DNA of 64,000 nt. Source: Escherichia coli (lineage in GTDB: Bacteria; Pseudomonadota; Gammaproteobacteria; Enterobacterales; Enterobacteriaceae). Position 1 is the stretch's first letter. Each line of letters starts with the position of its first letter. Position numbers and translations under genes: made by a program. Under the pieces are notes generated by a model. That model did not search any database. It was not told where the DNA came from and saw nothing but the letters and a program-made list of their open reading frames with translations. Shown here piece after piece: positions 27,752 through 27,900 of this stretch. Where the stretch lies: the NCBI RefSeq assembly GCF_003334765.1, contig NZ_QOWT01000005.1. One strand, 5' to 3'.

Positions 27752-27900
27752 CTTATTCTCAGGGCGGGGCGAAATTCCCCACCGGCGGTAAATCAACTCA
27801 GTTGAAAGCCCGCGAGCGCTTTGGGTGCGAACTCAAAGGACAGCAGATCCGGTGTAATTCCGGGGCCGACGGTTAGAGTCCGGATGGGAGAGAGTAACGA
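27752..27900 (+). promoter_or_regulatory. sroG: FMN riboswitch (RFN element) in the ribB leader
   Basis: Conserved aptamer blocks GGGCGGGGCGAAATTCCCCACCGGCGGTA ... CCGGGGCCGACGGTTAGAGTCCGGATGGGAGAG upstream of ribB, followed by a GC stem and TTATTTTGG that can act as a sequestor/terminator. Confidence 0.85.

Follow-up and report, generated by a model that had tools for sequence, protein, structure and literature searches.

The FMN riboswitch in the ribB leader of Escherichia coli: a conserved aptamer joined to start-region sequestration and reported Rho-dependent termination

The element upstream of ribB in the 64-kb window (the whole stretch of E. coli DNA analyzed here) is almost certainly the FMN riboswitch of E. 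coli ribB, known also as the RFN element or sroG, which acts in cis as an OFF switch by the mechanism proposed below. Its expression platform combines sequestration of the start codon and Shine-Dalgarno sequence (SD) with published Rho-dependent termination, under kinetic control, and is not an intrinsic terminator. This riboswitch is already known: it is annotated in every E. coli genome and has been dissected experimentally. To our knowledge, no other FMN riboswitch has been reported in E. coli.

Results

The ribB leader contains a complete FMN aptamer

All 4227 Rfam families were searched for in the 64-kb window. The original prediction of an FMN riboswitch in the ribB leader, which hung on a match to the RF00050 covariance model, was borne out: RF00050 scored 120.9 bits at 27751-27899 (+), where the gathering score is 66.2, with an E-value of 1.1e-27. 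The match covers model positions 1-138 of 138 without truncation, lies above the family's curated gathering threshold, and is the only RF00050 match in the window. Since this score and E-value are far past chance, the riboswitch observation is confirmed. The RefSeq feature on the identical sequence and the experimental literature (PMC11571811, PMC5499598, PMC5056776) agree with it, and nothing contradicts the identification.

The position first given, 27752-27900, pointed to the right element with an offset of one base, and the conserved RFN/FMN blocks quoted along with it are present, GGGCGGGGCGAAATTCCCCACCGGCGGTA at 27762-27790 and CCGGATGGGAGAG at 27880-27892. The element had been described as absent from ORF-based descriptions, which is true, yet public annotation already holds it: on identical DNA, RefSeq carries an "FMN riboswitch" feature of 149 nt at the same position upstream of ribB.

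Between the end of the aptamer and the ribB start codon lie 103 nt, and the aptamer shares the strand of the gene, in the sense orientation of the 5′ leader. By the RefSeq gene boundaries, the spacer between ribB and the divergent upstream gene yqiC, now named ubiK, is 373 bp long (27630-28002), and not 372 bp as originally counted. It is 100% identical to that of E. coli K-12 MG1655, and it occurs at an identity of at least 95% in 5426 of 5426 complete E. coli genomes. In these genomes the leader occupies 5429 places, being found twice in at least one genome, and one of the places is on a plasmid. The features of the leader are collected in Table 1.

Table 1. Features of the ribB leader and their positions in the window
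Feature	Position	Strand	Basis or remarks
Putative σ70 promoter of ribB	27716-27744	+	−35 TTGCTG 27716-27721, 17-nt spacer, −10 TATAGT 27739-27744, 6 nt to G+1 27751
FMN aptamer, six helices P1-P6, corresponding to sroG RNA	27751-27899	+	RF00050, conserved positions, RefSeq, fold
P1 5′ strand UUAUUCUC	27753-27760	+	Pairs with GAGAGUAA 27890-27897 (Rfam structure line)
Aptamer 5′ core strand UCAGGGC(GG)	27759-27767	+	Anti-P1 with 27958-27966 in the FMN-free state
P1 3′ strand (27890-27897), overlapping the anti*-P1 5′ strand AGAGUAACG (27891-27899)	27890-27899	+	Rfam structure, published anti*-P1 helix (PMC11571811)
Small GC hairpin (CGGG 27907-27910 with CCCG 27917-27920)	27905-27921	+	−5.2 kcal/mol; nested inside anti*-P1
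CGUUAUUUU, U-rich tract: anti*-P1 3′ strand (published 175-183) and first pause region	27925-27933	+	Numbering; PMC11571811
Short variable hairpin GGC-UAUAU-GCC	27934-27944	+	Sequence and length differ among species
ACUCCUAAG box in C-rich, G-poor linker	27948-27956	+	Invariant in 24 Enterobacterales; candidate rut and/or GGGAG partner
Switching strand CUGCCCUGA	27958-27966	+	Anti-P1 (ON), or 27963-27966 with 28008-28011, the sequester base (OFF)
Sequestering hairpin	27963-28011	+	Lowest-energy fold, −14.4 kcal/mol; 13-bp lower stem and weak apical helix
Shine-Dalgarno GAGG	27989-27992	+	10 nt upstream of AUG, in apical helix
U7 run with second published pause region	27993-27999	+	Numbering; PMC5234074, PMC11571811; just before sequester 3′ arm
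ribB CDS	28003-28656	+	ORF, 217 aa, 3,4-dihydroxy-2-butanone-4-phosphate synthase; 100% identical to K-12 RibB

Leaders of other species share the aptamer helices

For comparison, GTDB species genomes were scanned with the aptamer pattern CCGACGGTNNNAGTCCGGATGGGAGA, which gave at least 120 loci. Of the at least 120 loci listed, 40, all outside E. coli, have a ribB homolog directly downstream. About 80 of those listed are FMN riboswitches for which no ribB homolog was found in that place, most of them from Actinomycetota, Chloroflexota, Firmicutes and other phyla. Selected by an exact aptamer pattern and among the matches listed, these leaders form a biased sample and not a survey. We aligned 24 Enterobacterales leaders with MAFFT.

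This work itself shows that the element belongs to the aptamer family, how all its helices are arranged and conserved, and what their energies are. The aptamer is identical to RF00050 at 65 of 66 upper-case consensus positions, the exception being C27770 in the P2 loop. Standard pairs occupy 27 of the 28 consensus base pairs, and the odd one, the third pair of P4, is non-standard in 24 of 24 species. P1, P2, P3, P5 and P6 are 100% paired across the 24 species; in P1, where every cell of the alignment is paired, four of the eight pairs vary on one side. Energy minimization of the 149-nt RNA yields P1 and the inner helices.

What is said here of FMN binding, Rho dependence, pauses and resistance mutations is taken from the literature on the identical sequence. 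For this sequence an FMN Kswitch of 57-104 nM and FMN-dependent protection of P1 and the sequester have been reported (PMC11571811), along with a KD of 13 nM for ribocil on the E. coli aptamer (PMC5056776).

Published landmarks fall on the expected bases

Judging from the mapped published numbering, transcription would start at about 27751. Published pauses lie at C175/G176, U181 and 247-249 (PMC11571811). With +1 at 27751, positions 175, 176 and 181 are C27925, G27926 and U27931, and +247 to +249 become 27997-27999, inside the U-run. The anti*-P1 helix was reported to join 141-149 with 175-183 through just two G-C pairs, G149:C175 among them (PMC11571811), and in the window positions 141-149 (AGAGUAACG) are complementary to 175-183 (CGUUAUUUU). 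The ribocil-resistance mutations, C100U and C111U in the aptamer and U218C and C219U in the sequester (PMC5056776), map to C27850, C27861, U27968 and C27969, respectively. All of these landmarks (100, 111, 141-149, 175, 176, 181, 218, 219 and 247-249) are on the expected bases, and the resistance mutations thereby give independent support for the numbering.

The putative promoter was placed from the published +1 and from cross-species conservation, its register TTGCY-17-TATAGT-6-G being kept in nearly all Enterobacterales leaders. A strict consensus promoter scan gave no match in the region, because the −35 fits the consensus at only three of six positions.

The hairpin in front of ribB pairs the start codon more strongly than the SD

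It was originally suggested that a stem downstream of the aptamer can sequester the ribB SD. Such a stem exists, but its strong part pairs the AUG and the first codons, and the SD is weakly paired. The lower stem joins 27963-27975 with 27998-28011, with U28004 bulged, and takes in AUG 28003-28005, codons 2-3 and the 6 nt preceding the AUG, so that ribB codons 1-3 (AUG AAU CAG) belong to it. On the 5′ side the sequester region reads CUGCCCUGAUUCUGGUAA (27958-27975), and on the start side UUACCAUGAAUCAG (27998-28011). The apical helix, 27980-27985 with 27989-27994 (AAUUUU with GAGGUU), is weak and G-U-rich and includes the SD; in the 24 Enterobacterales leaders it is 85% paired, mainly by G-U or A-U.

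Mutually exclusive anti-P1, anti*-P1 and sequester helices were located in the leader, and they are 93-100% paired across species. Over the 24 Enterobacterales leaders, pairing reaches 93.2% for the FMN-bound structure and 96.3% for the FMN-free one, and sliding the partners by 1-3 columns drops it to 37-56%. Anti-P1 is paired in 99.1% of cells. The lower stem of the sequester is 100% paired, and since 12 of its 13 pairs never vary, this is conservation and not covariation; the single variable base, A27966, changes to G and keeps its pairing in both anti-P1 and the sequester. Among 24 more diverse sequester modules, the lower stem is 96.5% paired and two pairs have changed on both sides. Both alternative folds thus find support in the 40 ribB leaders of other species.

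Nested folds are consistent with a kinetic decision

Folds were calculated for transcripts of increasing length. The 149-nt RNA folds at lowest energy into the aptamer with P1. In RNAs of 215-247 nt, anti-P1 (UCAGGGC 27759-27765 with GCCCUGA 27960-27966) is part of the lowest-energy fold, and for the +247 RNA the anti-P1 fold has −77.9 kcal/mol versus −69.0 kcal/mol with P1 forced. The sequester appears from 262 nt on. These nested folds at 149, 215-247 and at least 262 nt fit the published kinetic window, in which the pause at about +249 delays synthesis of the sequence that competes with anti-P1 (PMC5234074).

In the unconstrained lowest-energy fold of the full-length RNA, the sequester is present even without P1 or ligand, so the ON state must depend on kinetic trapping or on help from ribosomes. 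This fold lends no support to a two-state switch of purely thermodynamic kind, and it fits the published kinetic window. In the thermodynamic model, anti-P1 competes for only the four basal pairs of the sequester, so that the hairpin goes from −14.4 to −6.3 kcal/mol, weakened and not abolished, and the modeled unpaired probabilities shift modestly between the states, from 0.21 to 0.26 for the SD and from 0.35 to 0.47 for the AUG.

The stem and U-rich tract after the aptamer are not a canonical intrinsic terminator

The original prediction placed a stem and then a U-rich tract after the aptamer. Both are there, the small GC hairpin and the run UUAUUUU (27927-27933), which is interrupted by A and begins 6 nt past the stem; as a canonical intrinsic terminator they did not hold up, the stem having 4 bp and the consensus scan being empty. 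By the definition used here, a GC-rich hairpin of at least 5 bp with a U run directly after it, the leader falls outside the class, and a consensus intrinsic-terminator scan downstream of the aptamer gave no match.

We considered whether stem 27907-27920 and U tract 27927-27933 could form an FMN-stabilised Rho-independent terminator, as in Bacillus subtilis ribD, a reading suggested by the original wording. The two parts are present and conserved, the hairpin being 91.5% paired in the 24 Enterobacterales leaders with compensatory changes at three of its four pairs, the run reads UUAUUUUUUU in Enterobacter and Citrobacter relatives, and the literature puts the switch at the transcriptional level too. 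However, a 4-bp stem of this energy with a broken U-run 6 nt off, together with the empty scan 3′ of the aptamer, speaks against this reading, and so does the pairing of the U-run with the P1 3′ strand in anti*-P1. Since that helix forms without FMN, a terminator built on its strand would have the wrong polarity for an OFF switch. In addition, a rho mutation abolishes the control of transcription (PMC5499598), and 175 and 181 were mapped as pauses and not as termination points (PMC11571811). A terminator of the ribD kind is thus highly improbable, and an intrinsic terminator 3′ of the aptamer was rejected on the strength of the consensus scan, the energy and geometry of the hairpin, and the polarity of anti*-P1. 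A "stem and U-tract" in enterobacterial leaders should not be taken as evidence of an intrinsic terminator.

Within the platform of sequestration and Rho-dependent termination, both parts find another place. CGUUAUUUU is 93.1% paired with 27891-27899 across the 24 species, one compensatory pair included. The GC hairpin appears, from its compensatory changes, to be under selection as a structure; it ends 4 and 10 nt before the published pauses C175 and U181, and is probably a folding or pause element.

Separately, a terminator-like hairpin with a T-run (GAGCGATTTGCTC AATTTTTTTC) lies at 27596-27608 (+), antisense in the 5′ end of the ubiK CDS. It is probably due to chance, one such site having been found versus 0.7 expected from shuffles.

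The C-rich linker is a good candidate for Rho loading

Hollands et al. reportedly observed in 2012 Rho- and FMN-dependent termination in this leader in a purified system without ribosomes. According to published work, ribB no longer responds normally in a rho R66S strain (PMC5499598), ribB is placed in the direct class, its leader rut site being uncovered by FMN (PMC5499598, PMC12360218), and FMN raises RNase H access to +184 to +193 (PMC11571811).

In the window, the C/G ratio of the linker is 1.5-2.0 over +166 to +225. The ACUCCUAAG box sits in the most C-rich and G-poor part of the leader and is therefore a good rut candidate; the spacer that flanks it varies freely in length and sequence among the 24 Enterobacterales leaders. 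The exact location of the rut site is one that we infer. CUCCU in the box (27949-27953) could also pair with GGGAG of the aptamer (27886-27890). This pairing is possible in every leader, with a median of −8.2 kcal/mol, and appears in lowest-energy folds. However, about 15% of shuffled sequences of matched composition do equally well, and stronger pairing is often offered by other windows of the linker. All six CUCCUA/UGGGAG pairs are invariant among Enterobacterales, which is conservation and not covariation. The box may be a third contact, with GGGAG of J6/1, or the core of rut, or it may serve as both.

Two other observations concern the linker. The variable hairpin at 27934-27944 is missing from three short Enterobacter leaders, and by inspection most species have complementary arms; its 45% pairing in the alignment, where MAFFT lost the register, was set aside as an artefact and does not count against it. 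A pairing of CUCAC (27921-27925) with the SD-proximal GUGAG (27987-27991) was rejected: it comprises only 5 bp and, on inspection, shows no co-variation, relatives having CUCAC with AAUGAGG.

A purely translational switch would account for some of these data. FMN would then block ribosome binding only, and Rho termination would follow indirectly from the untranslated ribB message, as in thiM. The conserved hairpin does bury the AUG, resistance mutations do fall in it, and thiM of the same organism is under indirect Rho control (PMC5499598). Nevertheless, the placement of ribB in the direct class and the FMN-raised RNase H access described above both speak for a rut site exposed by FMN. In the same direction, the modeled unpaired probability of the C-rich, G-poor linker is slightly higher with P1 closed than with anti-P1 (0.55 versus 0.44, a small difference). 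We consider a purely translational switch unlikely.

A model of the switch

On our model, the first 149 nt of a transcript started near 27751 would fold into the six-helix FMN aptamer. When FMN is bound, P1 (27753-27760 with 27890-27897) would be kept closed, leaving GCCCUGAUUCUGGUAA free to pair with UUACCAUGAAUCAG in a hairpin of about −14 kcal/mol. This hairpin would bury the start codon and enclose the SD, blocking the initiation of translation, while the C-rich linker (about 27922-27962) would stay single-stranded, giving Rho a place to load and end transcription prematurely.

Without FMN, the P1 3′ strand would pair with CGUUAUUUU (anti*-P1) and the aptamer 5′ core UCAGGGC with GCCCUGA (anti-P1). 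This would dismantle the ligand pocket and take away the base of the sequester, whose hairpin would be reduced to a weak one of about −6 kcal/mol. Ribosomes would initiate, and their presence would also block Rho. The decision is proposed to be kinetic, taken as the polymerase moves between the pauses at +175/181 and those at +247-249.

The switching strand and the first codons of ribB are nearly invariant among the leaders listed

Among the matches listed, GCCCUG is invariant in 40 of 40 leaders (the window and 39 species), and the exact GCCCUGRUUCUGGU together with ACCAUGAAUCAG is kept in 39 of these 40. Identical platform motifs span Enterobacterales, Vibrio, Pleionea, the alphaproteobacterium Kiloniella and a Desulfobulbaceae MAG. 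In the sequester 3′ arm, AUG AAU CAG and the preceding 3 nt are identical in 39 of the 40 ribB leaders among the matches listed. In the sole one of these leaders without the start-region motif, that of Kushneria, both the platform and the N-terminus are different.

The conserved switching strand and first three codons are consistent with constraints running from the FMN pocket into the CDS. In such a chain, the invariant FMN-pocket strand UCAGGGC would fix its anti-P1 partner GCCCUGA, which in turn would fix its sequester partner, ribB codons 1-3. It is a tentative proposal, which we put at somewhat short of even, that this chain of pairing constraints freezes the platform and that the Met-Asn-Gln start of the RibB protein is set by the RNA switch rather than by the enzyme. 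Alternatively, a riboswitch-ribB cassette may have moved horizontally between classes as a unit.

Other features of the window

The same window holds two full-length SIB RNAs (RF00113) in tandem, at 18530-18679 and 18905-19054 (+), with 142 and 148 bits. They are presumably sibD and sibE, the antitoxin RNAs of Ibs-type toxin-antitoxin pairs, with the ORFs of the ibs toxins on the opposite strand. Rfam also gave a match to the ES173 sRNA at 55885-55948 (−; 99 bits, gathering score 90) and one to naRNA4/CssrE, a REP-derived nucleoid-associated RNA, at 10540-10610 (+; 79 bits, gathering score 59.5).

Upstream of ygiL, a fimbrial usher gene (25491-26453, −) looks broken, with a 320-aa ORF and an out-of-frame-looking end. 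The closest genomes in the usher region (23500-27300), for example ATCC 8739, are 99.9% identical and one base shorter there (3800 versus the window's 3801), pointing to a probable 1-nt indel. K-12 MG1655 has an IS2 at this location, and the region is found in only 3353 of 5426 E. coli genomes.

Discussion

The ribB element sets riboflavin synthesis and is a validated target of the antibacterial ribocil (PMC5056776). It is also a model for the combination of translational control, Rho termination and polymerase pausing. Its occurrence in the window adds nothing new; as a structured cis-regulatory RNA, it could be recognized from raw sequence.

Because the element bears an sRNA name, sroG, which is used in constructs and in strain-engineering papers, we asked whether SroG, the stable 149-nt fragment, could also be a trans-acting sRNA besides its cis control of ribB. 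It originally came to light as an abundant RNA some 150 nt long, and riboswitch-derived trans-acting RNAs are known in other bacteria, such as SreA of Listeria. Against such a role, the fragment ends at the closed P1, as 3′ trimming of a Rho-terminated leader would leave it, and the constraints of aptamer and switch account for all the conservation. A function in trans is therefore scarcely to be expected, and we retain the cis-acting OFF switch.

Serganov and colleagues are said to have solved in 2009 crystal structures of the Fusobacterium nucleatum FMN aptamer, of the aptamer alone. The aptamer of the window shares with it the six-helix junction and the conserved core nucleotides, and differs in the lengths of the peripheral loops of P3 and P4.

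With the E. coli ribB riboswitch/sroG studied before (Hollands 2012, Pedrolli 2015, Bastet 2017, Eschbach 2024), the present element is the same, and the leader is without differences. What sets the window apart from K-12 is its surroundings: it comes from a non-K-12 strain, and the neighboring fimbrial usher region is without the IS2 of K-12.

The ribD (ribDG) riboswitch of Bacillus subtilis has the aptamer family, the ligand, the OFF logic and the kinetic control with pause sites in common with ribB (PMC11571811). However, it uses an intrinsic terminator and anti-terminator, whereas the ribB leader relies on sequestration of the start codon and SD and on Rho. In this respect ribB resembles the E. 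coli thiC and thiM leaders and the Salmonella mgtA leader, in which translational sequestration likewise goes with Rho termination and with a regulatory pause close to the start codon (PMC5234074, PMC5499598). These leaders differ from it in their aptamers and ligands, and thiM controls Rho indirectly via translation. In ribB, the pause in the start region has a role of its own, delaying the strand that competes with anti-P1 (PMC5234074).
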